Counted from the stretch's first letter, positions 9,205 to 26,819 are shown. The stretch: DNA of 64,000 bases from a virus (IMGVR_UViG_3300042368_001013:1-64000); one strand, 5' to 3'. Translations and numbers: made by a program. Notes: a model not told the origin generated them from the letters alone.

Positions 9205-9278
9205 TCGGGCATGCTGGATTTGAACCAACGGCATCTTGCTCCCAAAGCAAGCGCTCTACCAAGCTGAGCTAATGCCCG
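9205..9278 (-). tRNA. tRNA-Pro(TGG)
   Basis: Cloverleaf, anticodon loop TTTGGGA; promoter TTGACT-16-TATAAT at 9328..9301. Confidence 0.95.
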
Positions 9279-9610
9279 TGTTATTATTTATTACGCCAGT
9301 ATTATACAGTAAAGATAGGCACAGTCAAATATAAATATTGTAGTAGTAAATGAAATTGTTAATTTTTACTTTCTTTGAAGTAAATTATAATTTCTGCAAT
9401 TCCCAAAGCAATAACTGGCAGAAACGTAGCACCAGCAAACCACCAAAATGGTACGGTATGTTCTACCATTAGACTTCACATCCAGTCTTCTTTTTCTTTG
9501 TAAGAAGATACTTTATCATTCCTTCGATCATCCCAAAGATCATCAAAGGAAATATAATCATGAAACAAAGAGTAAGTACAGAAACTCTTTTAAATTCTTC
9601 AATGAAAAGA

Positions 9611-10369: not shown

Positions 10370-10378
10370 TTCTAATAT

Positions 10379-10816
10379 TTATCGCCGTCTAGAGAAGGCA
10401 ACCAAAGTTGCCATCGCCACAAGCAATCCCATTCCTGGAGCAGGAACGGGAGGACGCACAGGCCCATCGTAAGGAATGCTTTCAGTCGGAAATTCCATAC
10501 ACACGCTCTCAATACGGTCATAGTGCATGGGAATGAACATATCCTGATCTACAGTCTGCACGGTCATCACAAGGTTTCCTTCACGATAGATCTTGTGAAC
10601 CCAAAAGCCATCAAAGGAACCCATGAAAAAATTATGAGGAATCTGTGGGTAGTTAGAAACAGTCGGATGATCAATCGCTTCCCCAATCGGTTCCGTGATC
10701 GTCAAGGTATTGTCAAAGGTCAGCGGCTTGGTATAAGAAACTTCAACATACATCGAACCTTCGTTGATGGAGGTTGAGAAAAGATTGCCCTGTCCGTAAA
10801 TCAAAGATACGCTCAT
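10379..10816 (-). CDS. Protein with PEP-CTERM-like C-terminal sorting signal
   Basis: Ends VPAPG-MGLLVAMATLVAF-SRRR. Confidence 0.75.
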   Translation of the reverse strand: MSVSLIYGQGNLFSTSINEGSMYVEVSYTKPLTFDNTLTITEPIGEAIDHPTVSNYPQIPHNFFMGSFDGFWVHKIYREGNLVMTVQTVDQDMFIPMHYDRIESVCMEFPTESIPYDGPVRPPVPAPGMGLLVAMATLVAFSRRR

Positions 10817-11130
10817 TAGATCCCGTCCATTTCATTGTTGTCATTGGGTCCAAAGAATCCCAATGCGTTGTCAACGTCTGCCTTATCGTCCAAAGCCTGT
10901 TGCTGCTTCATCTTTTTCATGCGCTCCGGTGTACGGAACTTCTTCATGAAGTCACACTTGCAATGGTCAAACTCACGGTCATCAGCGTGAATGAGAAGCC
11001 CGTCCCATTCATCGCACCAATGCCATCCATCGTCAAGTTCCTGTGCGGTCAGCATGACGCTCTCATCGCCATCAAAGGGCTGCATGAGGTAGTTCCAACG
11101 CTCTTGAGTCATTTTGTGTTTGTCGCTCAC
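10816..11130 (-). CDS. Hypothetical protein (GTG start coupled to upstream stop)
   Basis: GTGA overlap; GWHWCDEWDGLLI motif. Confidence 0.65.
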   Translation of the reverse strand: MSDKHKMTQERWNYLMQPFDGDESVMLTAQELDDGWHWCDEWDGLLIHADDREFDHCKCDFMKKFRTPERMKKMKQQQALDDKADVDNALGFFGPNDNNEMDGI

Positions 11131-11411
11131 TTGCCGTCCTCCTGTTTGAAGCAATCCCAACCCTTGGCTTTGGCGAAGTCGTGCTGCAATTCAGCACTAG
11201 TGAAATGCAAACGGCAGATCATCCGCCTCGCCTCGTCGCGCTCGGCGGTGATGGTTGCGTTCTCCTGCCGCAGTCGCTTGTTTTCCTGCCATGCCTTTTC
11301 GAGCATCGAAACTGCCTCGGTCGGAGTCATCTCTACGATCACTTCTCCTTCGCACCCCATCAACGTAACGGGGCAGGAAGCATCAATCGTCTTTGGTTTC
11401 TTCTTGCTCAC
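11127..11411 (-). CDS. Hypothetical, ERDEARR...GWDCFK family (GTG start)
   Basis: Shares C-terminal module with 11408..11689. Confidence 0.7.
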   Translation of the reverse strand: MSKKKPKTIDASCPVTLMGCEGEVIVEMTPTEAVSMLEKAWQENKRLRQENATITAERDEARRMICRLHFTSAELQHDFAKAKGWDCFKQEDGK

Positions 11412-11689
11412 TTGCCGTCCTCCTTGAAGCAATCCCAGCCGCGCTCTTGCGCCCATTGCTTTGCATTTACCGATGCGGAGATGGCGGCGACATTTTTACA
11501 TATCTCGCGCCTAGCCTCGTCACGCTCGCGTTCCAACTGACAGATCCTAGCGTAACCGTGGCAAATTATATTGATAATTTCTGGAGTGAGACTGGTATAC
11601 TTTGAAAGTTCACGCAGTTCGTATGCAACATCCTCGTCCTTGATGTTTTTTAATTTTGGTCTATTAGGATTGTGCCAATCTTCACTCAT
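11408..11689 (-). CDS. Hypothetical, ERDEARR...GWDCFK family
   Basis: Shares C-terminal module with 11127..11411. Confidence 0.7.
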   Translation of the reverse strand: MSEDWHNPNRPKLKNIKDEDVAYELRELSKYTSLTPEIINIICHGYARICQLERERDEARREICKNVAAISASVNAKQWAQERGWDCFKEDGK

Positions 11690-11694
11690 TGGTA

Positions 11695-11877
11695 TTACTT
11701 TCCAAAGGTAATGGTGATCTTCTCAGCCAACTGAACGCAGAGCAGGATCATCATGAATGCCGTCCCAAGGAACATGAGTGTGATGGCGACATCGATGAGG
11801 AGTCCCAGCGCACCATGATCGGGAAATAGGCTGAGGGTCTTGGTAACGGTCTTGGTGTTCTTTTTCTTGGTAGCCAT
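11695..11877 (-). CDS. Small membrane protein
   Basis: Basic N-terminus plus hydrophobic segment. Confidence 0.6.
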   Translation of the reverse strand: MATKKKNTKTVTKTLSLFPDHGALGLLIDVAITLMFLGTAFMMILLCVQLAEKITITFGK

Positions 11878-11879
11878 GT

Positions 11880-12110
11880 TTATTTCTTTTCTGAATGTTT
11901 GATATAGTCGATTTCGTGCTTTAGGAAGTCATCTTCAACCACATAGATGTTATGCGAGATCTTGTCCAACATATCTTCAATCTCAACCTGCGAGATGGTT
12001 CCATCTCTGACATCATTACGCAGAAGATCAATCTGTTCAATGACAATGGAAAGTTTGTCCATTGCTTTGAAGAAACGCTTCGGGCTCTTGGTCTTGGTCT
12101 TGGTAGCCAT
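11880..12110 (-). CDS. Hypothetical protein
   Basis: Tightly packed ORF in operon. Confidence 0.65.
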   Translation of the reverse strand: MATKTKTKSPKRFFKAMDKLSIVIEQIDLLRNDVRDGTISQVEIEDMLDKISHNIYVVEDDFLKHEIDYIKHSEKK

Positions 12111-12111
12111 G

Positions 12112-12378
12112 TTAGTCCTTGTTGTATTCCTGATTGGTCATACGAGTGATGCTACGAATATAGCCGTAACGACGACGAGCGCAAGCAACTATGCGCTTGT
12201 ATTCCTTGGCGGTGCAGTAGAAGTGAAGGTCAAATGACTTGCCTTCCAGCATCATACCGGACCCAACGAACATTCGGCTGTAACGCTTTTCCAGCCCACG
12301 GGAAATTTGGAAATAGTTTCCACGGTTGTACTGAAAGAAGTAGTGGTACTTGGTTTCTTTCTTGGTTTTGGTGTTCAT
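12112..12378 (-). CDS. Basic hypothetical protein, probably leaderless (MNTKTKK)
   Basis: ATG 6 nt below TTGACT-16-TATACT (12412..12385). Confidence 0.7.
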   Translation of the reverse strand: MNTKTKKETKYHYFFQYNRGNYFQISRGLEKRYSRMFVGSGMMLEGKSFDLHFYCTAKEYKRIVACARRRYGYIRSITRMTNQEYNKD

Positions 12379-12435
12379 GCCCATAGTATAGCACATACCC
12401 AATGCAAGTCAAGCAACAGGATGATAAATAACTTT

Positions 12436-15115: not shown

Positions 15116-15489
15116 TAGAGGGTAAGTAGGGGCTGTTTGTAGTGGTGTATGGGGTAAAAGGTTTTTAAAAAATTTAGAGAAAGTGAGAGTTAGACCCCAC
15201 CCCTCAAACACTCTCCAAGGCCCTTTAAATGCCTTTACAGCCCCTTTAAGCCATCCAAAGGACAGCACTCGCCTCTAAATCCCGTCCCTCTATAGGGCAT
15301 TCTAGCGAGTCAAGCAATTTTCTTTAAGATTTTAACAAATTTTTGAGAATTTTGAGCAATTTTTAAAACCCGTCCAGGCAAACCCCACAATCTGGGCCCT
15401 TAGAGAGCAATTGCCGTACAATATTAATTTTTATATCCTGTCCGCATCCTGTCCAGGGTTTTGGGGGAGCTGCGAGCCATCCGTAGCAT

Positions 15490-15810
15490 GTCCAGTAATC
15501 CCCCCTGATAGTTGTCTGATAGTTGTCCCGTTTCAGAAATTTTTGAAATTTCTTTGTGTGAATCGGGTCCGGTAATATTTTCAAATTTATTTGAAACCTT
15601 GGTGGGGCCGATAACCATAGAACCTGCCAGTCCGATAACCAGCAGTCCGGTAAGCATAGCCCCGATAACCATGAGCGTCCGATAACCCCCTGCCCACCCT
15701 CTCACAATTATTGGACACTTGGGCTGGGGGGTTATCGGTCGCATGAACAGTCCTATAAGTATACACCAGATCTGGGGGGAGTCAAGTACTAGACCACAAG
15801 TCCGATAAGC
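15490..15810. repeat. Cluster of GTCCGATAAC-like repeats and tandem CTGATAGTTGT(C) half-sites
   Basis: Copies at 15608, 15630, 15645, 15661, 15677, 15731 (inverted), 15750 and 15800; CTGATAGTTGT twice at 15505-15527. Confidence 0.8.
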
Positions 15811-15928
15811 TGGCCAGAGCTGAGCTCCTGGATCCAGGAACCCGGTCCAGTGAATTAATTAAATTATTATTATTGTCCCAGAAGCGCTCGACGGCCTCTC
15901 GACAGCTCCAGGTAACGTCCCGTCCAAT

Positions 15929-15983
15929 CTACTATCAGGCCGTCCGAATAAATCAAATTTCCTCTGAGGAAATTTGATAGTAG
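15929..15983. repeat. CTACTATCAG palindrome element, copy 1
   Basis: CTACTATCAG...ATCAAATTTCC-TCTGA-GGAAATTTGAT-AGTAG. Confidence 0.8.
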
Positions 15984-16058
15984 TCCAGGTACACAGCCAC
16001 CCAGGACTGGCTCTCTCCTTCCAGTCCTGGGCGACCATGTATGTCAATAGACTAGATC

Positions 16059-18236
16059 TTACCTGTCCCGGCGATCCCGGAACTTCATGCCCTCCGGGAA
16101 GCAGGGCAGTCCGTAGATCCCGGAGTCCATCTTGCGGATGGGCTGACCCGCCACGATGTCCACATACCGGGTGAGGAACACACGGCTACCTGCCCGCTTG
16201 CCCATCGTCTTGATGAACTGGTTCTTCACCTTGGTGAAGTTACCTCCGGTGGCAATCGCCTCCTCGTCCTTGACGGGCTTCGGGGTCTGAATGAGGAAGT
16301 ACGAATCGTAGCCGGGGAAGGTATCTTCGTGCAGGACAAGGCATCCCTCCTTGAACGCTTCCGCCGCAGCCTTGTACCGCTCCGAATCTCCAACGGTCAG
16401 ACCACCCTTGTAGTGATGGGAGATGGAATCGGCATTCTTCTGCTTCTCCTGTTCGCTCAAGCAGAACTGCTCAAAGCAGCGTTCCGTCAGGATACGAGTG
16501 GGCATCACATACATTCCAACGCATCGGGCGTTCAACTTGGTGCGGAGGGAATTGAGCATGGCGTAGATGACACCATCGGGCAGATTCGTCCTGCCGTTCT
16601 TGTTGTCGATGACGGTGACCGTATCAAGGATCTCGTTCGTCACGGTGAGGGAAGTACCCTCGCCGTACCAGTAGACTCCATCCTCCTTGGAGGTGTTGAT
16701 GTGGTTGGGGCAACCGTCCGTCACGACCATGATGGTCGGAATCTGAATGTTGTTCTCCTGCACCCATCCCGCCATGAACTGGGAAGTGAGGGCAATGCAC
16801 TCCACCGTGGGCGTACCGTTCAGGGTGAGGTAACGGGAAGTGGGGCGGGTCTGCTGCACATAGGTTTCGTAGATGTACGCGCACAGACGCTCACGCTTGG
16901 CCGCATCGTCCTTGGAGGAGGCAATGTTCAGCAGCCTAGCCGTACCGATGTGCATACCCGTGGGGCAGTCACGATTCAAAGCCCGTGCGCCCCATTCACG
17001 GTCGAACTCGTAGGAGAACGCATCGGGATTCTGCTTCCTCCATGCATCACACGCAGCCTGATACTCGGGATCAAGGTTGCCGTAGACATCGGTGTAGCCG
17101 AACACCTCAAATGGGATCTTCGCCTTCTCGCAGAACCACACCAACTGGAGAACCTGAAGGTAGGCGTGGCCGATGGTCGCACCCATGCTGCCGCTGAAGT
17201 CAAGCATGAACACGATGCCGTGGTTCTTGCCGTCCTGCTTGACGATCTTCGACAGGAAGATATCGTCATGGGTGCGGTACTGGTGGAGGCGGTCAAGGTT
17301 CAGCATCCCGGTCTGCTTCGGACGCTCACGGCGGATCTCGTCCGCAGCCTTCTTGCGCTCAAACTGGGCGACCATCTGACGGACGAACGCATCGGACTCG
17401 CGCACGAACTGGCGGTACTCCTCAAGGAGCAGCGGCCTGTTGCTGTTGCCCTCGTAGTCGTTGAGGATGGTTTCCGTGCTGACGATGTGCTTGGACAGAT
17501 CCTTGACTCCGGTGAGAGTGACCACCGCGTCCTGATACTGCGAACCGTCCTTGCGGCGGAAGTCACCGGGGACATTCGTCTTGTCGCCCATGATCTTGTC
17601 CTGCTCCTTCTCACCCTGCTTGCCACCCTTGGCAGCAGCAGCCTCCATGTCCTCGCGCATCTCCTTCATGGAAGGGTGCTTATACAGGAACTTGGCGACC
17701 TCAAACACCTGATCGTAATTGACCACGGCATCCACCATGTCCACGACCTCCTGCTCCGTCCCCTCAAAGGTCATGGGGATGAAGCCGGGAACGCCCCACT
17801 TGAAGTGGATGTTCAGGCGGTTGAGGAACCCGGCCTTCGTGAAGTCCATCTTCTTGAAGCCGAACATATCAATGTCTGCGATCTCCTTGTAGCCAAGGAA
17901 GAAGTCACGGCGAGTGCCGGGGAACTTCTGCTTCATCAACTTCTCAATGCGGACATCTTCGATGATGTTGGCAATGCGAGAGAGCAGCATGGGGTTGTAG
18001 CCGTCTGCCTCCGCAGCCTTCAGCAACTCATAGCCGCGCTCGTAGGGAGTCCACAGAGCGTGGCTGATCTCGTGGGCCACGAGCATGGTCTTGACGGTTT
18101 CGGACACATCCCACATGGGCATGACGAGGTGACGCGACTTCACATCGAACGATGCGGTTTCAGCGTCCTTGGAGAAGGAGAACGAAATGTTCTCGGATGC
18201 GAGAGCCTTGGCGAAGATGGAGAGAGAGGTGTTCAT
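16059..18236 (-). CDS. vWA-domain protein with N-terminal HExxH region (CobT-like partner of the AAA+ ATPase); probably leaderless, start MNTSLS
   Basis: HEISH, EDVRIE, MIDAS DFSGS, GTP and VVTDG motifs; ATG 6 nt below TTGACT-17-TACAAT. Confidence 0.85.
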   Translation of the reverse strand: MNTSLSIFAKALASENISFSFSKDAETASFDVKSRHLVMPMWDVSETVKTMLVAHEISHALWTPYERGYELLKAAEADGYNPMLLSRIANIIEDVRIEKLMKQKFPGTRRDFFLGYKEIADIDMFGFKKMDFTKAGFLNRLNIHFKWGVPGFIPMTFEGTEQEVVDMVDAVVNYDQVFEVAKFLYKHPSMKEMREDMEAAAAKGGKQGEKEQDKIMGDKTNVPGDFRRKDGSQYQDAVVTLTGVKDLSKHIVSTETILNDYEGNSNRPLLLEEYRQFVRESDAFVRQMVAQFERKKAADEIRRERPKQTGMLNLDRLHQYRTHDDIFLSKIVKQDGKNHGIVFMLDFSGSMGATIGHAYLQVLQLVWFCEKAKIPFEVFGYTDVYGNLDPEYQAACDAWRKQNPDAFSYEFDREWGARALNRDCPTGMHIGTARLLNIASSKDDAAKRERLCAYIYETYVQQTRPTSRYLTLNGTPTVECIALTSQFMAGWVQENNIQIPTIMVVTDGCPNHINTSKEDGVYWYGEGTSLTVTNEILDTVTVIDNKNGRTNLPDGVIYAMLNSLRTKLNARCVGMYVMPTRILTERCFEQFCLSEQEKQKNADSISHHYKGGLTVGDSERYKAAAEAFKEGCLVLHEDTFPGYDSYFLIQTPKPVKDEEAIATGGNFTKVKNQFIKTMGKRAGSRVFLTRYVDIVAGQPIRKMDSGIYGLPCFPEGMKFRDRRDR

Positions 18237-18294
18237 GCGTATATTGTAACCGATGTGGGGGGAGAAGTCAACCCACAAACAAAGATTTTTTTGC

Positions 18295-18368
18295 GTCCCA
18301 TAACGTCCGGCTACTATCAGGCTGTCCAATAAAAATCAGAAAGTCCAGACGGACTTTCTGATAGTAGC
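18295..18368. repeat. GTCCCATAAC box plus CTACTATCAG palindrome, copy 2
   Basis: GCTACTATCAG...ATCAGAAAGTCC-AGAC-GGACTTTCTGAT-AGTAGC. Confidence 0.85.
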
Positions 18369-18377
18369 TCACAGATG

Positions 18378-18409
18378 CTGCCTCTCCCCCCTTGCGGGGG
18401 GAGAGGCAT
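18378..18409 (-). terminator. Strong GC hairpin downstream of ORF 18418..18636
   Basis: TGCCTCTCCCCCC/GGGGGGAGAGGCA inverted repeat. Confidence 0.6.
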
Positions 18410-18417
18410 GAACAGCA

Positions 18418-18636
18418 TCAGACTGTGACGGGAGCAATCAGCGAGGTCAGGTTGTAGACCCCCTTGATGTCCGTCTTGCAGTCCTTCAGCACCCAAGTCG
18501 GGATGCCCTTCATGTTGATGGACTGCGCGATGTCAAGCAGGTTGAACTTGTTGAACGCAGCGATGTCAAGGCTGTTGGCCTCTGCGTAGTGCTTGGCTGC
18601 GGCGACGAAACGATTGCGCTTGTTGAGGTATGGCAT
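18418..18636 (-). CDS. Small protein resembling the N-terminal domain of the adjacent AAA+ ATPase
   Basis: KRNRF...IPTWVL...KGVYNL versus KRNF...LPAWLV...RGKYII. Confidence 0.7.
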   Translation of the reverse strand: MPYLNKRNRFVAAAKHYAEANSLDIAAFNKFNLLDIAQSINMKGIPTWVLKDCKTDIKGVYNLTSLIAPVTV

Positions 18637-18658
18637 TTTCTTTTTCTTTCTTTCTTGG

Positions 18659-20005
18659 TTAGGCGTTCATAGCGTACTGGGTGTCGGTGTCGGGGTTGGA
18701 CAACTTATCCAACTGTGCTTTCAATTCTGCAATCTTCTTCTGCTCTGCGGTCAGAGCGTTGACGGGGTTGCTCACCGGGGCATCCTTCATTCCCTCCGGG
18801 ACAGGGAGGATCGTGGGGTCGATCTTCGTGTAGAGGTTGAAGAACGCCTCCTTCGTGGACGCATCGAACCGCGTCAGCGTCAACTTGATGGCCTTCTCCT
18901 TGTCGCCAAAGATGGCGAACGCCTTGCACACTTCCTCCAAGCGGCGGGTGGTGATGATGTCATCCAGTCCGCCCTCCTTGAAGCCCATGCGGATCGTTTC
19001 CGCCCACTTCGTGAGGTACTGGGCGAACTCCTTGTCCTCCTTGCCGTATGCCTTCATCTTGCGGATGATGATACGCGCTTCGATGGTGCGATCCGCGTAG
19101 TCCTGCTCAAACCAGTAGGAGAAGCGGTCAAGGAACGCCTCGTTCATGCAGCGCGTACCCACAAACCGATCAGACTCACCCTTGCCCTTGGTGTTGGCAG
19201 TCGCCACCACATTGAAGCCCACGGCAGGCTTGATGAACATACCGATCTTCTTGATGTAGATGCCCTTGCCCTCAAGCACGGGCTGAAGGCACATCATGCG
19301 CTCCGTCCCAAGGTCGATCTCGTCAAGGAGGAGGATGGAGCCACGCTGCATGGCCTGAACCACGCCACCGAACACGAACTTCGTTTCGCCGTTGACGAGG
19401 CGGAAGCCACCGATGAGGTCATCCTCGTCCGTTTCGGCGGTGATGTTGACGCGAATGCACTCGCGGCCCGTGGAGGCGCAAATCTGCTCCACCATCGTGG
19501 TCTTGCCGTTGCCGGACATACCCGTGATGTAGACGGGAGCGAACTGCTTGGATGCGAGGATGGTGGAGATGTCATCGTGGTGACCCCACGGAACGAAAGT
19601 CTCGTTCTTGGCGGGGACGAGCGAAACATCGGAGGACGGCATGACGAGGTTGTAGGTGTTGCTGTTCATGTTGCTGATTGTATCACAAGTTTCGGAGGAA
19701 GTCAAGGTTTCGGAAGAAGATTCGGAAATATTTTCTTCCACGTTATCGGACTCTGCGGGAGTGTAGTCAAGGACAACCATTTCCGGGATGATGTACTTGC
19801 CACGACCCGCACGGCGGTTCTTGGGCTGCACCAGCCAAGCCGGGAGGACGCTGTAGCACTGCTCGCCAAGGGCATGGGACTGGGTGAGTGCGGCAAGGCA
19901 CTGCTCACGGGTGTAGACGGCTTCCCCGATGGTCTGCGGATTGCCGTACAAGAATTGAAGGTGGTTGAGGAAGTTACGCTTGCGAATGTCGATGTTGCTG
20001 TTCAT
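18659..20005 (-). CDS. cobS: MoxR/CobS-like AAA+ ATPase with extra N-terminal domain; internal shorter isoform predicted from 19669
   Basis: Walker A GMSGNGKT, Walker B LLLDEID, ATANTKG, EAFLDRF and TTRRL motifs. Confidence 0.88.
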   Translation of the reverse strand: MNSNIDIRKRNFLNHLQFLYGNPQTIGEAVYTREQCLAALTQSHALGEQCYSVLPAWLVQPKNRRAGRGKYIIPEMVVLDYTPAESDNVEENISESSSETLTSSETCDTISNMNSNTYNLVMPSSDVSLVPAKNETFVPWGHHDDISTILASKQFAPVYITGMSGNGKTTMVEQICASTGRECIRVNITAETDEDDLIGGFRLVNGETKFVFGGVVQAMQRGSILLLDEIDLGTERMMCLQPVLEGKGIYIKKIGMFIKPAVGFNVVATANTKGKGESDRFVGTRCMNEAFLDRFSYWFEQDYADRTIEARIIIRKMKAYGKEDKEFAQYLTKWAETIRMGFKEGGLDDIITTRRLEEVCKAFAIFGDKEKAIKLTLTRFDASTKEAFFNLYTKIDPTILPVPEGMKDAPVSNPVNALTAEQKKIAELKAQLDKLSNPDTDTQYAMNA

Positions 20006-20065
20006 GTCACAATCTTACCACACAATCTTCCAAAAGTCAATAGGCTAGAATATATTTTTTTCCAG

Positions 20066-20150
20066 GTCCTATAACTTCCCGTCCACTACTATCATAATAA
20101 TATAAACCATCCTCAGAAATTCGCTTAAAGGGCGAATTTCTGATAGTAGC
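20066..20150. repeat. GTCCTATAAC box plus CTACTATCA palindrome, copy 3
   Basis: CTACTATCA...TCAGAAATTCGC-TTAAAGG-GCGAATTTCTGA-TAGTAG. Confidence 0.85.
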
Positions 20151-20202
20151 TCAAAGAACAACCCCCGCTTGCGCGGGGGTTGTGAGGGACTGACCTAGCA
20201 TA

Positions 20203-20448
20203 TTAGCCGGTCGTGTTGTAGTAGTTCTTCTCCGACTTGCACTCGTTCGCCTTGCAGCACTTCTCAAGGGTCACGATGCGCTGCCACATCTTCTCGTTCT
20301 CGCTGTAGAGATCCTTGACCATTTCGTCTTGATGACGAATGATGTTGTTCAACTTCTCGTTCAGTCGAACGCGGAAGTAGGCGATGGCGAAGTAGGCGGC
20401 ACCTGCGAGGGTGATGACGGTAACGAGCGTGTTGAGATCAATATTCAT
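20203..20448 (-). CDS. Small membrane-anchored coiled-coil protein, probably leaderless
   Basis: N-terminal TM segment; ATG 6 nt below TTGACA-16-TATACT. Confidence 0.7.
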   Translation of the reverse strand: MNIDLNTLVTVITLAGAAYFAIAYFRVRLNEKLNNIIRHQDEMVKDLYSENEKMWQRIVTLEKCCKANECKSEKNYYNTTG

Positions 20449-20498
20449 GTCTTTAGTATACCTCGGGGTTTGGGGTTGTCAAGCAACGAAACAGAAAA

Positions 20499-20574
20499 TA
20501 GAAGGGGCGGGAGTTGCACCCACATATTCACGCTTATAAGGCATGCGCTCTAACTACGATTCAGCCACCCTTCT
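20499..20574 (-). tRNA. tRNA-Ile(TAT) with atypical T-loop
   Basis: Acceptor AGAAGGG/CCCTTCT, anticodon loop CTTATAA, T-arm GGGTGCAACTCC. Confidence 0.8.
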
Positions 20575-20575
20575 G

Positions 20576-20658
20576 TGGTGGAGCCTTCATACGGATGCTC
20601 CGGTGTCCGTGCAACCGTAGGTTGCCTCTATACGGTTATTTTAGTTACCGCCAAACTC
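20576..20658 (-). ncRNA. Candidate tRNA-mimic RNA ending in ACCA
   Basis: GAGTTT/AGGCTC closing stem, three internal hairpins, 3' CCACCA immediately before tRNA-Ile. Confidence 0.5.
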
Positions 20659-20708
20659 ATTAATAATATAACTCATTGAGGTACATTGTACCACCTCTTT
20701 CTTGTTTG

Positions 20709-20855
20709 TCAAGTCTGGGGGAAAGGAATCACGACCTGAAGCATGCAGTCGTTGCACAGTTCGAATGCTTCCCAATCTTCACCATCGGGATAGTCAATGC
20801 GAACCTTGGTCAGTTCTTCCTCAAACTCTTCGTTGCATCCGCAGCAAGTGTTCAT
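20709..20855 (-). CDS. 48-aa CxxC...CxxC zinc-finger-like protein
   Basis: MNTCCGCNEEF...LCNDCM; GAGGA ribosome-binding site upstream. Confidence 0.6.
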   Translation of the reverse strand: MNTCCGCNEEFEEELTKVRIDYPDGEDWEAFELCNDCMLQVVIPFPQT

Positions 20856-20875
20856 GGGTTCCTCTCGTGGTTAGG

Positions 20876-20949
20876 CGTTCCCGGTTGGATTCGAACCAAC
20901 GACCTGCCGCTTAGAAGGCGGCTGCTCTATCCTGCTGGGCTACGGGAAC
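20876..20949 (-). tRNA. tRNA-Arg(TCT)
   Basis: Cloverleaf, anticodon loop CTTCTAA. Confidence 0.95.
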
Positions 20950-20952
20950 AAA

Positions 20953-21042
20953 TGGAAGGGGTACTTACGGCCTTTGCGGAAAGAATATGTTTTTCTTCTA
21001 ACATATTCCGTGACCCGACTATATCCGACTATTCGCCCTTCC
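20953..21042 (-). ncRNA. Candidate structured RNA with tRNA-like acceptor stem
   Basis: GGAAGGG/CCCTTCC-A closing stem and internal GAATATGTT/AACATATTC helix, between tRNA-Leu and tRNA-Arg. Confidence 0.55.
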
Positions 21043-21075
21043 GTGTTGGGTGCCTTGAAGAAGGACACCCGGTAA

Positions 21076-21148
21076 TAGCGCGAGTGGGAGTCGAACCCAC
21101 ACTTTGTTGATTTTGAGTCAACTGTCTCTGCCTTTGGACTACCGCGCC
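21076..21148 (-). tRNA. tRNA-Leu(CAA) lacking the long variable arm
   Basis: Anticodon loop CTCAAAA, 5-nt variable region. Confidence 0.85.
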
Positions 21149-21160
21149 ATGATCCCCATT

Positions 21161-21433
21161 CTAGAACAGATCGGGGGTGTTGTCAAGTTTGAAATCTGAA
21201 TTTATTTTTTCATAAAATTCAGAGTTGTGTGGGACGATCTTCTCATGAAGCCTGCCCACGTTGATGTGTTCGCCTACGTCATCCTTCGCATCGTAGTAGG
21301 CATCTATGAGTTCTTTTGGAGGATTGGAGTTTCCTTCCAACCAGTACTCCATCACCTGCTCCATCACGATTGCGAGTCGGTCGTATGCACGGCATGCGCC
21401 AGTAAGAAGTTCGATTGTTTCTTCGTTTGTCAT
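21161..21433 (-). CDS. Hypothetical protein (start MTNEET)
   Basis: ORF between tRNA-Lys and tRNA-Leu. Confidence 0.65.
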   Translation of the reverse strand: MTNEETIELLTGACRAYDRLAIVMEQVMEYWLEGNSNPPKELIDAYYDAKDDVGEHINVGRLHEKIVPHNSEFYEKINSDFKLDNTPDLF

Positions 21434-21435
21434 AA

Positions 21436-21508
21436 TGGGTCCGGTGGGACTTGAACCCACAACCAATAGATTAAAAGTCTACTGCGCTACCGATTGCGCT
21501 ACGAACCC
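21436..21508 (-). tRNA. tRNA-Lys(TTT)
   Basis: Cloverleaf, anticodon loop CTTTTAA; promoter TTGACA-17-TATAAT at 21545..21517. Confidence 0.95.
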
Positions 21509-21546
21509 GAATGCCCATTATAACCGATGGGCTGCGGCTTGTCAAG

Positions 21547-21903
21547 TCAGGAGTCGAAGTCCTCGTCCGCATCCGGGTCAAACGGGTAGTGTTCCCGCTC
21601 CGTCTGACCTGCGTACTCCTCGTAGGTCATCTCCATGATCTGCGCGAGCATCATCATGAAGGCGGCGAACCCCAAGTGAATCTCGGGCATCCGTCCATCC
21701 GCCTTCTCACCCACCATCCAGTCGGTGACGTACTGGATCCCCTTGGCGACGATCATGCGCTGACCCTCGTGCTTGTAGAAGTTCGGGTGTTCACCTGCGA
21801 ACTGCATCAGGGTCTTGACGACATCCAACGGGTCGGGCTTGAAAGCCCCCATGTCGATGTCCTTGCGGCTGAAGAAACCATCGTACTTGTTCTGCGGTGA
21901 CAT
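21547..21903 (-). CDS. Hypothetical early protein
   Basis: GC3-rich ORF; shares F..EHPN motif with the upstream gene. Confidence 0.7.
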   Translation of the reverse strand: MSPQNKYDGFFSRKDIDMGAFKPDPLDVVKTLMQFAGEHPNFYKHEGQRMIVAKGIQYVTDWMVGEKADGRMPEIHLGFAAFMMMLAQIMEMTYEEYAGQTEREHYPFDPDADEDFDS

Positions 21904-22118
21904 TAGCGAATCTCCTTGAGGGTGGTGTGCAGGGACATGACGAACTCGTACTCCTCATCGGTGACCATATCAGGACCGCTGATCTGCGTCAGGATGAAGT
22001 AGCCTTGAGCGAGGCGGGCAATGTCCTCATCGTGATCTGCCCAGTTGGGGTGTTCGGTGACGAAGTTTGCGATCTCGTTGATGAGGTCGGAGATGTCGGT
22101 GGTGGTGGGCTTTCTCAT
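21903..22118 (-). CDS. Hypothetical early protein, probably leaderless
   Basis: ATG 6 nt below TTGACA-17-TACAAT. Confidence 0.75.
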   Translation of the reverse strand: MRKPTTTDISDLINEIANFVTEHPNWADHDEDIARLAQGYFILTQISGPDMVTDEEYEFVMSLHTTLKEIR

Positions 22119-22432
22119 GTCGGTATTGTAACAGGTTCGGGGTACGGTGTCAAGGTCACGCTGCGAAAATGTTTTACTTGTTTTGCGAGGCGGATGAAGG
22201 TCTGGAACTTCTCATCCGGCATCTCAACCAACAGGTCTAGATTGTAGGTTCCGATGCCGAAAACAAAACTCTGATCTAACGATGTGACGACATGAACATC
22301 GAACATTCCGGTCGGGTCTGACAAGGCCAGGCATTGAAACACGCTCTTGACCATCTTCTGCAATCTGCGCCGATGCCATCCCATGGAATTGGTCAACGGG
22401 GAGTGCATCTCAATGTGGACGGTGGCTTTCAT
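22115..22432 (-). CDS. Hypothetical early protein
   Basis: ATGA overlaps at both ends; the 3' end contains the next promoter. Confidence 0.6.
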   Translation of the reverse strand: MKATVHIEMHSPLTNSMGWHRRRLQKMVKSVFQCLALSDPTGMFDVHVVTSLDQSFVFGIGTYNLDLLVEMPDEKFQTFIRLAKQVKHFRSVTLTPYPEPVTIPT

Positions 22433-22668
22433 TCGAAGTCCCCGTCATCGATGAAGTCGGGAACATCCCGGTCAAGGTCATCGTCACCGTAGCAGTAGTC
22501 ATCGGCCTCGTAGTCGCCCATCATGCGGTCGATCTCATCGGGCGTGTAGCCTTCCTGCTCCAGCATGTCGCGGATCTCGCTGTCGCTCATGCCATCGAGG
22601 TCGCAGTCATCGTAGGGCAGCACAAGTTCGGTGTCGTTGGACGGGTAGTCGTTGGTGTGATCGTTCAT
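22429..22668 (-). CDS. Highly acidic small protein, probably leaderless
   Basis: Asp/Glu-rich; ATG 6 nt below TTGACA-17-TATCAT. Confidence 0.75.
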   Translation of the reverse strand: MNDHTNDYPSNDTELVLPYDDCDLDGMSDSEIRDMLEQEGYTPDEIDRMMGDYEADDYCYGDDDLDRDVPDFIDDGDFE

Positions 22669-22726
22669 GTCCGCATGATACCATATCCAAAGAAGGCTGT
22701 CAAGTCCAAAACAAAATATATTTTCT

Positions 22727-22785
22727 GTCCGATAACGTCCTGTCCGGGCTACTATCAGCGTGGCCCTCCCACGCTGATAGTTGTC
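22727..22785. repeat. GTCCGATAAC box plus CTACTATCAG palindrome, copy 4
   Basis: GCTACTATCAGCGTGG-CCCTC-CCACGCTGATAGTTGTC. Confidence 0.85.
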
Positions 22786-22787
22786 AA

Positions 22788-23084
22788 TTAGTTCATGTTC
22801 AGCATTTTCTCCGTCTTGCGAGAGAATGCTGCGATCCCGTCAATCTTATCCTCACCAATCAGGATCCAGTCCTTCTTGATGATGTCGAAGGCGCAGATGT
22901 ATCCCTCGGCGGTGTGGCGAGTGCCATTAGGGAGATCGCCCCCCAGTTGCTTGATGAACACGGGGTCAGTCGTGATCTCACGCGAGGTTGAGGTGCCGTC
23001 CTTCTTCCTGAACGACACAAAGAGCGTATCGTTGTTGGAGAGGGCGACGCGAAGAATCGTGGACATCGGAAGTTCGGTGGTCAT
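22788..23084 (-). CDS. SH3/WYL-like beta-barrel protein (DUF2693-like)
   Basis: V.F.KKDG..R..T...FD..K.DW pattern. Confidence 0.6.
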   Translation of the reverse strand: MTTELPMSTILRVALSNNDTLFVSFRKKDGTSTSREITTDPVFIKQLGGDLPNGTRHTAEGYICAFDIIKKDWILIGEDKIDGIAAFSRKTEKMLNMN

Positions 23085-23191
23085 GTTCGTATTGTGCCTT
23101 GTGTTCGGGTGAAAGCAAATGGGTGTGCAGATTTATTTCAAACTTCCTCCCGGCCCCACAGTGGGGCCGGGAGGCTACATGCACCACCATG

Positions 23192-23581
23192 TTAGATCGG
23201 AAAGTTGACCTTGCCAAACTCGGCCAAGTGTCGGCGCAGGCACTCCTTCACGATGTCCTGCAGCGGCAGGACGGGGATGCCCGTATCACGGAGGGAGGTC
23301 TCCGATGCCTTGGCGTAGTAGGACACAGATCCGTCACGGACGCTTTCCACGAATTCTTCCCAGTTCAGACCCAGTTCCGTGACGATCATGAGGACGAGGG
23401 TCTTCTCGGCATCCGTGAACCATCCGAACGGCAGGGACACGGTGATCTCGCACAGGGCAAGGGCCGCGTTGACCTCGGCGGGGTTGTCCTTGAACTCCGG
23501 CGTGTTGTTGGCGGTCAGGACGAGGGAAACAACGAGGTCATCAATCTTGGCGAGGCGGACGGGCTTGGTGGTGTTCTTCAT
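23192..23581 (-). CDS. Hypothetical early protein
   Basis: AAGGA ribosome-binding site, GC3-rich; hairpin downstream at 23146-23175. Confidence 0.7.
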   Translation of the reverse strand: MKNTTKPVRLAKIDDLVVSLVLTANNTPEFKDNPAEVNAALALCEITVSLPFGWFTDAEKTLVLMIVTELGLNWEEFVESVRDGSVSYYAKASETSLRDTGIPVLPLQDIVKECLRRHLAEFGKVNFPI

Positions 23582-23599
23582 GGTGGTGTTCCTTGTGGG

Positions 23600-23848
23600 T
23601 TAGGCGTTGAGGCACTTCTTCATGCGTTCGTCTGCTCGGCGGGACATATCCGCATCCAACTCACTCGCCAACTTTGCTTCTTCCTTCATGCGGCGGAGGA
23701 GGTACTGGAGCGCCCGCAGGTCGTGTTCGTTCGTGTTTTCTGCGAGGTTGCCCAAGTACCAAAGCGAGGAGGTGACATAACCGTAGGCGTAGGCGTGGTC
23801 GTGGGTGACGGAGGCGGGGATCTTGACGGTGGTGGTGCTGTTCTTCAT
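23600..23848 (-). CDS. Hypothetical early protein, probably leaderless (MKNSTTT)
   Basis: ATG 6 nt below TTTACT-17-TACAAT. Confidence 0.75.
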   Translation of the reverse strand: MKNSTTTVKIPASVTHDHAYAYGYVTSSLWYLGNLAENTNEHDLRALQYLLRRMKEEAKLASELDADMSRRADERMKKCLNA

Positions 23849-23927
23849 GTCGGTATTGTAACAGGTCGGGGTGCGAAAGTAAAGGGGGACAGAAAGAATA
23901 TTTCGCTTTCTGTCCCCCCACAGGGGT

Positions 23928-24176
23928 TCAGGTGAGCGGGATCCCGTACTTTGCCTCAAGGGCTTCCTTCAGTCCGGCGAGAACCTTCTCGCGGTTGCCC
24001 TTCAGACCGTATTCCTTCTTGGCGAGGGCGTAGCAGGAGACGCCACGGGTGAGGCGCATCGGGGTGCCACGGGCAGCGGTCTTGATTTCGAACTTCAGAC
24101 CGTTGTAGATCATCAGTTCACGGTAGGCGCAGATCTGTGCGGGAGTGTTCAGGACGATGTCGTTGGTGGTGGTCAT
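23928..24176 (-). CDS. Hypothetical early protein, probably leaderless (MTTTND)
   Basis: ATG 6 nt below TTGCAT-17-TACAAT. Confidence 0.75.
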   Translation of the reverse strand: MTTTNDIVLNTPAQICAYRELMIYNGLKFEIKTAARGTPMRLTRGVSCYALAKKEYGLKGNREKVLAGLKEALEAKYGIPLT

Positions 24177-24234
24177 GCGTAGATTGTATCACACCTTGCC
24201 GGAAAATGCAACCACAAAGAAAGAAATATTTGGA

Positions 24235-24300
24235 GTCCCATAACGTCCAGGTCGTCCAGACAACTATCAGCCAGCCCTCGGAGGGCTGGCTGATAGTAGC
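24235..24300. repeat. GTCCCATAAC box plus ACTATCAG palindrome, copy 5
   Basis: GACAACTATCAGCCAGCCCTC-G-GAGGGCTGGCTGATAGTAGC. Confidence 0.85.
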
Positions 24301-24437
24301 TCAGCCCCCTCTAGCCATTTCCCTTTTCCCCTCCCTCCTTGCCTTCCGGGGGTCCCGGCTCTTCTTTCCCCAGGTCTTGGGGCGAAGCCGGATTCCCTCC
24401 CGGAAGGCATCGTGGACGAATTTACCGGGACGGTGGT

Positions 24438-24983
24438 TCATTCGGCCTTCCCCCGAATGATGATCCACAACAGGGCTTGCATCGTGGCCGCGTCCATGTT
24501 GTAGGCCGATGCCACTTCGCGGACGGCGTTAGCAATGATCCGATATTCCGTCTTATTCGGAGCATCCTTGCCAAGTCCTGCGGCACGGCACATCCACACA
24601 TCCACAACCACCGCGTCACGGTCTCCGGCGATGGCACGGGCGAACGCATTCGTCTTGGGGCCACGCAGTCCGTCGAATCCTTCGCGGACGCATCGGTCTG
24701 CAGCCTCCACGTGGGAACGCAGTCCCTTCGGCGTGATACCCTGCGCGTACTCGTGCGCCTTACGCTTATTGTGCGCCCACGTGACGCGGGGCGAGAACGC
24801 GGAGACAACGCTGCACGAAATTTCCATGCTCCAATCGGGGCGAATGAAGCACAGACGACGGGCGAAGTCTCCGGCTTCAACGTACCACGCATCGGCGGAC
24901 GCATGATCGAAGAGGGTAGCGGTGGAGAGGAGGGAACGGAAACGGTTCGAAACGGTGGTGGTGGTGGTGGTGGTGCTGTTCAT
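24438..24983 (-). CDS. Helix-hairpin-helix glycosylase-like phage protein, probably leaderless (MNSTTTTTTT)
   Basis: SAFSP, GPKT.AF, VVVDVWM and QALLW motifs. Confidence 0.65.
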   Translation of the reverse strand: MNSTTTTTTTVSNRFRSLLSTATLFDHASADAWYVEAGDFARRLCFIRPDWSMEISCSVVSAFSPRVTWAHNKRKAHEYAQGITPKGLRSHVEAADRCVREGFDGLRGPKTNAFARAIAGDRDAVVVDVWMCRAAGLGKDAPNKTEYRIIANAVREVASAYNMDAATMQALLWIIIRGKAE

Positions 24984-25051
24984 GCGTACATTGTACCATG
25001 TCATGCCGTCCATGTCAATAGGTGGCGCCGAAATATTATAATATTCATTCC

Positions 25052-25115
25052 GTCCCATAACCATACCGTCCTCGACAACTATCAGCCAGCCCTCCGAGGG
25101 CTGGCTGATAGTAGC
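25052..25115. repeat. GTCCCATAAC box plus ACTATCAG palindrome, copy 6
   Basis: Palindrome identical to copy 5 except for the central base. Confidence 0.85.
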
Positions 25116-25189
25116 CCATATAAACAACCTAGCCCCGAACGAATCGGGGCAGGGACGAATCCTCTTCGGTTTGTACGAGCACCACCTCG

Positions 25190-25387
25190 TTATTTCGGTT
25201 CGGCTCGCTTGAGGATTACGGGCGTGATGTAGGCCATTGCCCACATGAGGCACACGCTCGGGATCATTGCCCAGTCGAAGCGATGGGCCGTCGCCTCCGT
25301 GATAGCGACCGAGGAGATGAGAGTGGCGAGAGCCACGAAGAGGAAGGTGATGACGTGTCGGACGGTGGTGGTGATGGTGGTGTTCAT
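25190..25387 (-). CDS. Small two-TM membrane protein, probably leaderless (MNTTITTT)
   Basis: ATG 6 nt below TTGACT-17-TACAAT. Confidence 0.7.
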   Translation of the reverse strand: MNTTITTTVRHVITFLFVALATLISSVAITEATAHRFDWAMIPSVCLMWAMAYITPVILKRAEPK

Positions 25388-25418
25388 GGGTGTATTGTAC
25401 CAGTTAGTGGTGCGGAAG

Positions 25419-25829
25419 TCAAGCCCCCGGAAACGAAAGAACCTGATACTTTGCGCCGGGCTTACGCTTGGACTGCGCGGCCCCGCTGTCGCGGCTGTCG
25501 ATGTGGTTCGCCGCAGCAAGGAAGCCGTAGGCAATGGCGCGCATCTCTGCGGCGTTGAGGGCCATGCTAACCTTCTCGTCACCGATGCCCAAGATGTTCG
25601 CGGTGGAGGAGCAGACAGCCGATGCGTAGACACGCACGGAGTACGGGCCCACCGGGATGACGAACGCAGCACCACGGTCACCTTCAAAGGTGACGCGGGT
25701 GTAGTTGCTGCGGTTGGCGATCTTGCATTCGCCAATGGTGACATTGCGTTCCGCGGTGCGGAGGAAGTCAGGGGTGCGAGAGGAGGAGTGGACGATAGAA
25801 ACGGCGTTGGAGAAAGTGGTGCAGGTCAT
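25419..25829 (-). CDS. Hypothetical early protein, probably leaderless (MTCTT)
   Basis: ATG 6 nt below TTGACA-17-TACAAT. Confidence 0.7.
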   Translation of the reverse strand: MTCTTFSNAVSIVHSSSRTPDFLRTAERNVTIGECKIANRSNYTRVTFEGDRGAAFVIPVGPYSVRVYASAVCSSTANILGIGDEKVSMALNAAEMRAIAYGFLAAANHIDSRDSGAAQSKRKPGAKYQVLSFPGA

Positions 25830-25935
25830 GCGTAGATTGTACCATGAGCAGGTGCGAATGTCAAGGGGTGGAAGAAAGAAATTTATTTCTTTGATTGGGC
25901 TTGACATGGAAGGCGGAGTATGGTATCATGCGGGC

Positions 25936-26205
25936 ATGTGCAACACCACCACCGACCCGAACGAATTCGAACACTTCCCCTGCGACTGCCACCGCCCGGA
26001 GTTCGCCTACACGGACTCACTGTGCCCGATGTGCGAGGAGCAGCGGGAGCGCGAGCAGGAGGCCAAGCGCGAGGCGCGCAAGCAGCACGATGATGAGTAC
26101 GCAGCAGATAACTCTGCGTTCATCGACGCGGCTAGCCGGATGAGCCCCGAAGACTGGGACGCGGACAACGACTGGCTAGCATCAGCCGGTTGGGGTGAGA
26201 TGTAA
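25936..26205 (+). CDS. Acidic Cys-containing early protein, probably leaderless (MCNTTT)
   Basis: ATG 6 nt below TTGACA-17-TATCAT; C-terminus LASAGWGEM. Confidence 0.75.
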   Translation: MCNTTTDPNEFEHFPCDCHRPEFAYTDSLCPMCEEQREREQEAKREARKQHDDEYAADNSAFIDAASRMSPEDWDADNDWLASAGWGEM

Positions 26206-26276
26206 GCCCCGAAGAAATATTCAAACTTCCAACGCCCACCCTTGACATGGGGTGGGCGTTGTGTTACAATATACGC

Positions 26277-26498
26277 ATGAGCACCACTCACAACAACCCG
26301 GCTGAAACCTCCCGCCCCTGCTGCTGCGTTTGCGGCGCTGATCACGTGGACGATAACGTTCGCGCTACCGAGCACGGTACGCTGTGCGTCATGTGCGTGG
26401 ACGATGTGCGCGCAGACATGGCATGGGACGCGCACGAGCGCGCCATGGGCTACGAAGGCGACGACGACCCCTACTGGGAGCAGCATGCGGAGGGCTAA
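26277..26498 (+). CDS. Zinc-finger-like acidic early protein, probably leaderless (MSTTHNN)
   Basis: CxxC...CxxC; ATG 6 nt below TTGACA-17-TACAAT. Confidence 0.75.
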   Translation: MSTTHNNPAETSRPCCCVCGADHVDDNVRATEHGTLCVMCVDDVRADMAWDAHERAMGYEGDDDPYWEQHAEG

Positions 26499-26511
26499 CC
26501 TCCCAGCCCCC

Positions 26512-26547
26512 AGATGCCCACCCCGAAGGGGTGGGCATCTTTGTTTT
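26512..26547 (+). terminator. Intrinsic terminator
   Basis: AGATGCCCACCCC-GAA-GGGGTGGGCATCT then TTGTTTT. Confidence 0.8.
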
Positions 26548-26819
26548 CAGAAATAATATTATTCTATTTGACTGATGGGTCACCCGCTATCGAGTTTGGC
26601 CTGTCCGAGTAGTGATTTGGGTCCCTTCTGGCGGGGTGTTATCGGACGGGCTAGCCCCTCCCTCTCAAATTTTCTTAAATTTTCTCAAATATTCTTGATG
26701 GTATAAAAATTTTTTGGCCACCCCCCACGACCCCAAACCTTAAAATACGTGGGATGCCATAAAAAAATTTGGGCCCCCGAAAGGACCCAAAAGTTTATCT
26801 AATCTAATGAGAGTGGAAG

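Follow-up and report, generated by a model that had tools for sequence, protein, structure and literature searches.

Why does an AT-rich phage genome hold, at one place, a block of genes whose codons end mostly in G or C, and why do four of its tRNA genes lie within that block? This question is raised by a stretch of viral DNA, IMGVR_UViG_3300042368_001013:1-64000 (64,000 nucleotides, hereafter the window), in which a GC-rich island of about 11 kb is embedded in AT-rich DNA (hereafter the backbone). The full record is one contig of 91,794 bp with 36.5% GC, and the window is its first 64 kb. The record carries T4-type structural genes, including the portal (phrog_213, E 2e-187), the large terminase, and the sheath, and the portal shares 47-50% identity with the portals of cyanomyophages and of Melnitz, a phage of Methylophilales. 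Related contigs reach up to 137 kb and were rated 58-76% complete; therefore, the record covers only part of the genome of this uncultured, T4-like phage. In addition, a T4-type DNA polymerase, a gp41-like helicase, and UvsX are encoded by one relative. The sequencing runs that hold the sequence are lake-water metagenomes.

Composition of the Island and the Backbone

The island extends over ~16.0-26.6 kb with 55-59% GC, and the DNA elsewhere has ~33%. When the GC content was calculated in 1-kb segments, it was 48-59% at 16001-27000 and 26-42% in most other segments of the 64 kb. At 200-bp resolution, the borders fell at ~15.9-16.05 kb and 26.55-26.7 kb. No second strongly GC-rich block was present across the whole 91,794-bp contig. 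Furthermore, the GC content at third codon positions (GC3) of the open reading frames (ORFs) was 0.63-0.84 in the island and 0.09-0.36 in the flanking and structural genes, and the two distributions do not overlap. An earlier reading of the window (the original prediction) had proposed a GC-rich island at 15900-26600 in an AT-rich genome, with mostly G/C-ending codons in the island and A/T-ending codons in the structural genes; the sliding GC profile and the GC3 values bear out both proposals.

Counted over all codons, 77% of the third positions are G or C in the island and 21% in the backbone. The island has C at 44%, G at 33%, T at 15%, and A at 8% of its third positions, and the backbone has T at 41%, A at 37%, G at 10%, and C at 11%. 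Some A-ending codons are nearly lost between the two: per 1000 codons, from backbone to island, AAA falls from 61 to 4, AGA from 20 to 2, CCA from 27 to 2, and TTA from 32 to 0.7.

Two stretches of intermediate composition were also observed outside the island. One is a zone within the window (table 1) with GC3 of 0.41-0.69, whose counterpart follows the CobT-like gene in relatives. The other is a pocket with GC3 of 0.53-0.55 at 66059-67378 of the genome, beyond the window.

Conservation and Origin of the Island

The relatives used in this study are 20 IMG/VR loci from different samples, found by searching with the 756-aa CobT-like protein of the island (51-99% identity). In all 20 loci, a GC-rich block (50-64% GC) abuts AT-rich DNA at the same position. 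In most of them, GC3 is 0.75-0.95 in the island and 0.15-0.35 in the backbone, and adjoining genes step from 0.16-0.24 to 0.78-0.84. The order tRNA-Lys, tRNA-Leu, tRNA-Arg, tRNA-Ile, CobS-like gene, 72-aa ORF, and CobT-like gene recurs, followed in relatives, outside the island, by tRNA-Pro, tRNA-Glu, tRNA-Gln, transfer-messenger RNA (tmRNA), and tRNA-Tyr. The backbone genes on both flanks are common to the relatives, and the borders of the island are fixed. Meanwhile, the 137-kb relative, which was fetched in full, has exactly one such island.

These results bear first on whether the island is an artifact, that is, a fragment from a GC-rich genome that assembly fused into an AT-rich contig, a possibility that the original prediction had itself raised. 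The abrupt change of composition is the only point that speaks for such a chimera. However, the same architecture, synteny, and tRNA order were found in 20 independent contigs at 51-99% identity, and this shared layout excludes it. In addition, 97-100% of the 31-mers sampled across the left border were present in each of 14 lake-water runs, although 13 of these runs are flagged as possible sources of this DNA. RNA runs had small shares (0.06-0.11), which were given no weight as evidence. We thus give the chimera almost no credence.

The four-fold degenerate sites of the CobS-like and CobT-like genes are 41-65% identical between distant members of the group, where 28-41% is expected at saturation. 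The GC content at these sites (GC4) is 0.72-0.86 in most members and 0.48-0.59 in three (L001, L002, and L020). Because the four-fold sites are near saturation and yet mostly still GC-rich, the composition of the island is a maintained state and not a fading trace. For the CobT-like and CobS-like genes, 464 phage records were matched, almost exclusively from T4-like cyanophages and pelagimyophages. In S-PM2, the homologous "peptidase"-CobS pair adjoins replication genes and has a GC3 of 0.38, like the rest of the S-PM2 genome. Since these homologues are not GC-rich, the GC-richness is derived within the present lineage. The block is an old, native part of the phage genome and was not imported recently.

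A horizontally acquired island was considered as a separate candidate and rejected, for the island is present in 20 of 20 loci, its large genes belong to the phage lineage, and neither an integrase nor real att repeats accompany it. The Pfam and PHROG scans of the island ORFs turned up no integrase or transposase, and the only flanking repeat is a 31-nt direct repeat (D4) at 74% identity.

Nevertheless, the composition might be imported in a more continuous way, if cassettes shuffle between phages and the island is refilled from GC-rich phages of the same host. The small island ORFs are indeed patchily shared among the relatives. In addition, the pairwise identities of CobS, CobT, and one backbone gene are only weakly correlated (Spearman -0.13 to 0.47), even between CobS and CobT, and this points to recombination within the group. 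However, the two large genes belong to the core of aquatic T4-like phages, keep their synteny in every relative, and equal the small ORFs in GC-richness; the synonymous sites have turned over many times, and most are still GC-rich; and the borders and the flanking genes are fixed. Cassette shuffling could refresh the small ORFs, but it cannot explain the GC-rich core genes, and we consider refilling an improbable source of the composition.

Promoters and Hairpins of the Island

The 10.6-kb island contains 13 sigma-70 promoters of the form TTGAC(A/T)-N16/17-TAnnnT, nearly all with a 17-bp spacer. The other 81 kb contain 15 looser matches, although chance favors AT-rich DNA. Most of the island promoters end 5-7 nt before an ATG, which implies that the predicted island mRNAs are mostly leaderless. 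Of the T4-type late box TATAAATA, the backbone has 14 copies and the island none. The relatives show the same partition: 103 leaderless modules lie within GC-rich DNA versus 7 outside, and the TATAAATA box occurs once within versus 18 times outside.

Furthermore, the promoters alternate with hairpins (repeat families D1-D7 and D10). A perfect 35-nt palindrome is present in two copies, at 24263-24297 and 25078-25112. Strong sigma-70-like promoters along with stem-loops between small ORFs, in the genome of a T4-type myovirus, are the features of promoter-early stem-loop (PeSL) regions. Judged by its motifs, the island appears to be a T4-type early region with PeSL cassette architecture, and the consensus sequences suggest early transcription by the host RNA polymerase and termination at the hairpins.

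Two observations concern the palindrome itself. It reads ACTATCAGCCAGCCCTC-G/C-GAGGGCTGGCTGATAGT, and its copies are 815 bp apart, on both sides of the DUF7178 gene. In addition, "CTGATAGT" feet similar to those of the palindrome were found at 15501-15527, 18352-18375, and 20134-20157.

The tRNA Set and Its Tuning

Nine tRNAs and a permuted tmRNA were predicted by ARAGORN, and all ten were confirmed by Rfam. No tRNAs were found in the rest of the 91,794-bp contig beyond the window. As the original prediction had stated, seven of the nine tRNAs read A-ending codons: the anticodons TCC, TTG, TTC, TGG, TAT, TCT, and TTT serve GGA, CAA, GAA, CCA, ATA, AGA, and AAA, respectively. The remaining two are Tyr-GTA and Leu-CAA.

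The Ile, Arg, Leu, and Lys tRNAs occupy 20499-21508 of the island, on the minus strand and among sigma-70 consensus promoters. The promoter of tRNA-Leu (21150-21186) ends 7 nt before the tRNA 5' end and is kept in 12 of 15 relatives, and that of tRNA-Lys (21509-21546) ends 8 nt before it and is kept in 11 of 14. Next come tRNA-Arg and tRNA-Ile, which have the same orientation and lie after additional promoters. The conserved promoter sequence thus lends good support, as a prediction, to the further proposal that island promoters drive these four tRNAs. For tRNA-Lys and tRNA-Leu, the predicted transcription start is 0-2 nt from the mature 5' end, and the arrangement is kept in most relatives. 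RNase P may have little or nothing to trim from the 5' ends of these two tRNAs. As for the tRNAs outside the island, tRNA-Pro is preceded, 16 nt upstream, by a TTGACT-N16-TATAAT promoter.

The seven served A-ending codons account for 242 of every 1000 codons in the backbone and for 49 of every 1000 in the island. This coverage was compared exhaustively with that of all 3432 choices of 7 from the 14 NNA sense codons. The backbone coverage was reached by 2.4% of the codon sets (p = 0.024), and the difference between backbone and island by 3.5% (p = 0.035). The phage tRNA set is tuned to the backbone codons. The next-ranked backbone codons, TTA and ACA, are served in some relatives by Leu-UAA and Thr-UGU.

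With regard to leucine, the three relatives with the lowest GC4 named above, whose islands are the least GC-rich, carry tRNA-Leu UAA where all other loci have CAA. In the window backbone, TTA (0.40) is used more than TTG (0.21) among leucine codons, which makes the anticodon CAA the puzzling one.

The tmRNA is part of the phage translation kit. Its two-piece form is kept in two relatives, L004 (16000-16398) and L011 (20269-20668), with different tags, ANELAMAA and ANIKAAPMRMAA.

A tRNA set of this kind could also belong to a phage of an AT-rich or intermediate host. In that case, the tRNAs would add capacity or replace host tRNAs that are destroyed or cut by nucleases, and the GC content of the island would be unrelated to decoding. 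Anticodon nucleases classically attack the Lys-UUU, Tyr-GUA, Glu-UUC, Gln-UUG, and Arg tRNAs. In addition, the portal is as similar to that of Melnitz, a phage of an AT-rich host, as to those of cyanophages, and pelagimyophages of the AT-rich SAR11 also carry tRNAs (PMC7029224). However, this explanation leaves the island unexplained. In the island, AAG makes up 93-97% of Lys codons and CAG 86-91% of Gln codons, a long-kept usage that is ill-matched to a host relying on U34 tRNAs. Furthermore, the anticodon loop of tRNA-Lys is canonical (CUUUUAA), without evasive changes. We therefore hold an AT-rich or intermediate host combined with an unrelated island to be rather improbable.

Several searches dealt with the identity of the phage and its host. 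Neither the island nor 20 kb of backbone matched any of 50,697 phage records by megablast, and the sole match in the genome collection was a 9-kb contig of an unclassified lake metagenome-assembled genome. The genes psbA (PF00124) and whiB (PF02467) were not found in four large relatives, each 58-76% complete. The DUF7178 family is virus-only (its Atlas clusters are 98-100% viral) and thus gives no host clue. A 145-aa protein at 10379-10816 on the minus strand ends with VPAPG, a hydrophobic helix, and SRRR, resembling a PEP-CTERM sorting signal; an NCBIfam search of this protein gave no PEP-CTERM match, and it is weak as a host clue.

What Holds the Codons G/C-Ending

With slightly better than even confidence, we favor the reading that the GC-rich early block is selected for host-like decoding and supplies tRNAs for the AT-rich rest of the genome. 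The block would be the phage's own immediate-early region, with small genes in promoter-plus-hairpin cassettes, similar to the "hyperplastic" regions of T4-type phages. Unmodified host RNA polymerase would read it from the consensus sigma-70 promoters, giving mostly leaderless mRNAs. Selection would hold its codons G/C-ending and nearly free of A-ending ones, so that a host with more GC than the phage could translate the block immediately with its own tRNA pool. Then the tRNA genes of the block, with their own strong promoters, together with five nearby tRNAs and the tmRNA, would supply the decoders of AAA, GAA, CAA, CCA, ATA, AGA, and GGA that the AT-rich rest of the genome needs. The island would thus act as a bootstrap that is independent of rare tRNAs and installs a second codon regime. 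We infer the timing, translation as the selected trait, and, from the island itself and the tRNA set, the GC-rich host.

A broader form of this proposal is more tentative, and we would place it somewhat below even chances. It states that, in the whole freshwater T4-like lineage, selection alone holds the 11-kb bootstrap against AT-biased mutation, that the bootstrap counters resistance by withholding of rare tRNAs, and that island GC tracks host GC by sublineage.

Codon usage pooled over 16 non-redundant relatives (27,617 island codons) bears on the kind of selection. The shares of AAA, AGA, ATA, CCA, and TTA within their own amino acids are 0.03, 0.02, 0.02, 0.04, and 0.00 in the island and 0.69, 0.61, 0.26, 0.55, and 0.29 in the backbone, and the share of GTA in the island is 0.01. 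Although T at third positions is overall far below G in the island, GGT (0.20) stands beside GGG (0.18) and CGT (0.21) beside CGG (0.17). Such retention of GGT and CGT is what decoding by tRNA-Gly(GCC) and tRNA-Arg(ICG) typically produces. Furthermore, C exceeds G at third positions of the coding strand in island genes of either orientation. Selection on decoding is favored over a plain need for GC because the excess of C over G follows the coding strand, GGT and CGT are retained, and the codons read by U34 tRNAs are nearly eliminated.

The strongest competing view is that GC is selected at the level of DNA or RNA, as an escape from silencers (of the H-NS, Lsr2, or MvaT type), termination by Rho of transcripts with little translation, spurious promoters, or RNase E, and that the tRNAs sit in the block only as part of the early region. 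Silencing of AT-rich DNA is well established. T4 MotB is reported to interact with H-NS (PMC7827196). In the island, GC at first codon positions is also raised (0.55 vs ~0.43), and amino acid use moves from Lys to Arg; in addition, consensus promoters are most distinct on a GC-rich background. However, the third positions (0.79) are biased far beyond the non-coding DNA of the island. The preference for C over G on the coding strand in both gene orientations and the hold of GGT and CGT against GGG and CGG also speak against it, and the AT-rich remainder of the genome would stay a target of the silencers. Thus, we regard selection at the DNA or RNA level as the sole cause to be unlikely, with about one chance in five in its favor.

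Four points weigh against selection on decoding. First, the intergenic DNA of the island is GC-rich as well (~0.42-0.54, compared with 0.34 in the backbone), and a component at the DNA or RNA level may contribute; the escape view above takes the same values in its favor. At ~0.47 overall, the non-coding DNA of the island has the value expected of an ordinary 57% GC genome. Second, the replication genes of the 137-kb relative lie outside the island with GC3 of 0.34-0.47, and in T4 such genes are also expressed before the late genes. Third, by our own rough estimate from mutation-selection balance, a GC4 of ~0.8 against an equilibrium of ~0.25 needs a scaled selection S of about ln(12), or ~2.5 per site; this is high for small genes, yet within the range of strongly biased bacterial genes. 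Fourth, in the T4-like Caulobacter phage Cr30 (38% GC), no such island was present in the first 50 kb, which hold many small early-type ORFs.

The second point limits the claim that "early" genes are GC-rich. It stands for the promoter-dense block of immediate-early type; it fails for the replication genes. Because these lie outside the island at GC3 of 0.34-0.47, the GC-rich regime is limited to that block. In the 137-kb relative, GC3 steps from ~0.8 in the island to the replication genes and then to 0.12-0.30 in the structural genes, which suggests a three-step gradient rather than a simple two-state split. The individual values in this relative (G002, loci L021-L027, 110-134 kb) were 0.47 for the DNA polymerase, 0.45 for ribonucleotide reductase, 0.35 for the helicase, and 0.34 for UvsX.

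With regard to the fourth point, Caulobacter crescentus, the host of Cr30, has ~67% GC. Since Cr30 is without an island in the 50 kb examined, a GC-rich host alone does not force this solution, and the island is a lineage-specific solution and not a general rule. Against an otherwise even background of 38% GC, Cr30 (L030) shows two short spikes of 54-55% GC, one at 8-9 kb and one at 34-36 kb. The latter coincides with two plus-strand genes, one annotated as xylanase, and is probably a host-derived insertion.

Genes and Other Features of the Island

The coordinates of the features are given in table 1. Among the island ORFs, only the MoxR-type ATPase, its partner, and the DUF7178 protein match a family; the rest are small and match none. 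For instance, no Pfam family was matched by the run of nine ORFs at 21547-24176, and most of these have homologues in relatives (27-97% identity).

The likely start of the CobT-like gene is the ATG at 18236, right after a TTGACT-N17-TACAAT promoter, and its protein is ~30% identical to the S-PM2 "peptidase" adjoining CobS. The CobS-like gene has a predicted leaderless promoter at 20003-20040. Identity with the cobaltochelatase CobS was tried and rejected, as the TIGR01650 score was 75 bits and the equivalog cut-off is 558.55. Because the ATPase falls so far below this cut-off, "cobalt chelatase" is a label only, and the pair is best described as a MoxR-type AAA+ ATPase (PF07728) and its partner (phrog_459). 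In addition, an in-frame TTGACT-N17-TACAAT-N7-ATG module lies within the ATPase gene at 19667-19705 and could yield a shorter isoform without the N-terminal domain.

The left border was placed between a backbone gene ending at 15115 on the plus strand and the last island gene. Its array of GTCC and GTCCGATAAC-like boxes (15200-16050, ~850 bp) looks like a putative binding-site array for a DNA-binding protein. The box GTCC[C/G]ATAACGTCC occurs again upstream of island promoters at 18267-18308, 22699-22740, and 24207-24248, and in inverted form at the right border (26630-26648).

Table 1. Positions in the window of the island genes, the RNA genes, and the neighboring elements
Feature	Positions	Strand	Basis
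tRNA-Gly (UCC) and tRNA-Tyr (GUA), outside the island	641..951	+	ARAGORN; Rfam
Two-piece (permuted) tmRNA, tag ANELAMAA	2294..2693	+	ARAGORN; Rfam RF04321, 78.6 bits
tRNA-Pro (UGG), tRNA-Glu (UUC), and tRNA-Gln (UUG), outside the island	7355..9294	-	ARAGORN; Rfam; same order in relatives
Intermediate-GC zone, outside the island	10372..12412	.	One predicted leaderless sigma-70 module at 12376-12412
Left border, non-coding, 41-53% GC, dense in GTCC / GTCCGATAAC boxes	15200..16058	.	Direct reading; GC profile; repeat family D15
CobT-like "peptidase", partner of MoxR-type ATPase, GC3 0.79	16059..18236	-	phrog_459, E 1.8e-115
72-aa ORF between the two large genes, GC3 0.82	18418..18636	-	Found in 18/20 relatives, 55-97% identity
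CobS-like MoxR-type AAA+ ATPase, GC3 0.80	18659..20005	-	PF07728 AAA_5, E 4e-18; phrog_249, E 4e-94
81-aa predicted early ORF, GC3 0.80, TTGACA-N16-TATACT promoter in front	20203..20448	-	ORF and promoter scan
tRNA-Ile (UAU), reads AUA	20499..20574	-	ARAGORN; Rfam, 50.6 bits
tRNA-Arg (UCU), reads AGA	20874..20949	-	ARAGORN; Rfam
tRNA-Leu (CAA) with own promoter TTGACA-N17-TAGAAT	21075..21186	-	ARAGORN; Rfam; promoter scan
tRNA-Lys (UUU) with own promoter TTGACA-N17-TATAAT	21436..21546	-	ARAGORN; Rfam; promoter scan
Nine small predicted early ORFs, 71-129 aa, GC3 0.63-0.84	21547..24176	-	Several start right after sigma-70 promoters; hairpin terminators between
DUF7178 protein, predicted leaderless start at 24983	24438..24983	-	PF23802, E 1.8e-27
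Two small predicted leaderless ORFs, starts at 25387 and 25829	25190..25829	-	Promoter modules
Divergent unit at the right end of the island: predicted leaderless ORFs 25936-26205 and 26277-26498, and terminator hairpin	25936..26560	+	Promoter modules

Significance

The island is a rare natural case in which two codon regimes are held in one genome. Both compartments are copied by the same replication machinery and, as far as one can tell, receive the same mutations. Studies of genome evolution in bacteria and viruses have long faced the problem of telling selection on synonymous sites apart from mutation bias. Because the compartments share this machinery and yet differ stably, GC3 of ~0.8 beside ~0.2 over near-saturated divergence is a natural experiment that separates the two.

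In addition, the codon usage of such islands could reveal the GC content and tRNA pool of the hosts of uncultured phages, and it could aid host prediction where whole-genome composition misleads. If the bootstrap is true, it would be a way for an AT-rich phage to overcome tRNA-limited translation, a resistance route recently shown in Synechococcus. There is also a warning for annotation: such islands resemble contamination or chimeras, and they break gene finders that use a single model.

Comparison with Known Systems

A Synechococcus of 66% GC resists the AT-rich T4-like phage Syn9 because its Leu-UAA tRNA is too scarce to translate the phage genes, and the tRNAs that Syn9 itself encodes fit codons seldom used by the host (PMC11726456). 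Like Syn9 and T4, the present phage has an AT-rich T4-like genome with U34 tRNAs (Arg-UCU, Ile, Gly-UCC, Pro-UGG, Gln-UUG, Leu, and others) for its own common A-ending codons. Its tRNAs are cognate to frequent backbone codons, as in other cases of tRNA compensation, and the island (49 per 1000) is here the only stand-in for host usage. However, Syn9 and T4 have one composition genome-wide, whereas a separate 11-kb compartment here avoids those codons and houses part of the tRNA set behind dedicated promoters.

Early and late codon differences in T4 were reportedly described by Cowe and Sharp in 1991. More generally, early and late phage genes differ in codon usage (Mioduser, Goz and Tuller 2017, PMC5683454). 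The present genome resembles such a temporal partition, as early and late genes would use different synonymous codons: the gene classes defined by promoters have GC3 of 0.63-0.84 versus 0.09-0.36, and their timing is presumed from the promoters. However, the reported differences are statistical shifts, and here the GC3 gap is ~0.6 without overlap, in one contiguous block that is conserved in the lineage at near-saturated sites.

PeSL cassettes have been described in the hyperplastic regions of T4-type phages (Arbiol et al. 2010, PMC2839356). The island shares with them the pairing of strong promoters of the sigma-70-like type with stem-loops between small ORFs. However, the PeSL regions of RB49 and phi1 were not reported to be compositionally distinct, and in the island the promoters abut the ATG, and core genes and tRNAs are included. 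Meanwhile, sharp borders around DNA with deviant GC and codon usage are also typical of horizontally acquired islands. Unlike these, the present island is syntenic in all relatives, lacks an integrase and real att repeats, has large genes of the phage lineage, and shows no decay of its composition.

In the literature searched, no AT-rich phage was described as having a conserved GC-rich early island, and a survey of pelagimyophages does not mention such an island (PMC7029224). Phage tRNA compensation, early and late codon differences, and PeSL regions are already known. What that literature was not found to contain is a contiguous and sharply bounded codon compartment, with a GC3 gap of ~0.6, that is conserved in the lineage and houses tRNAs.

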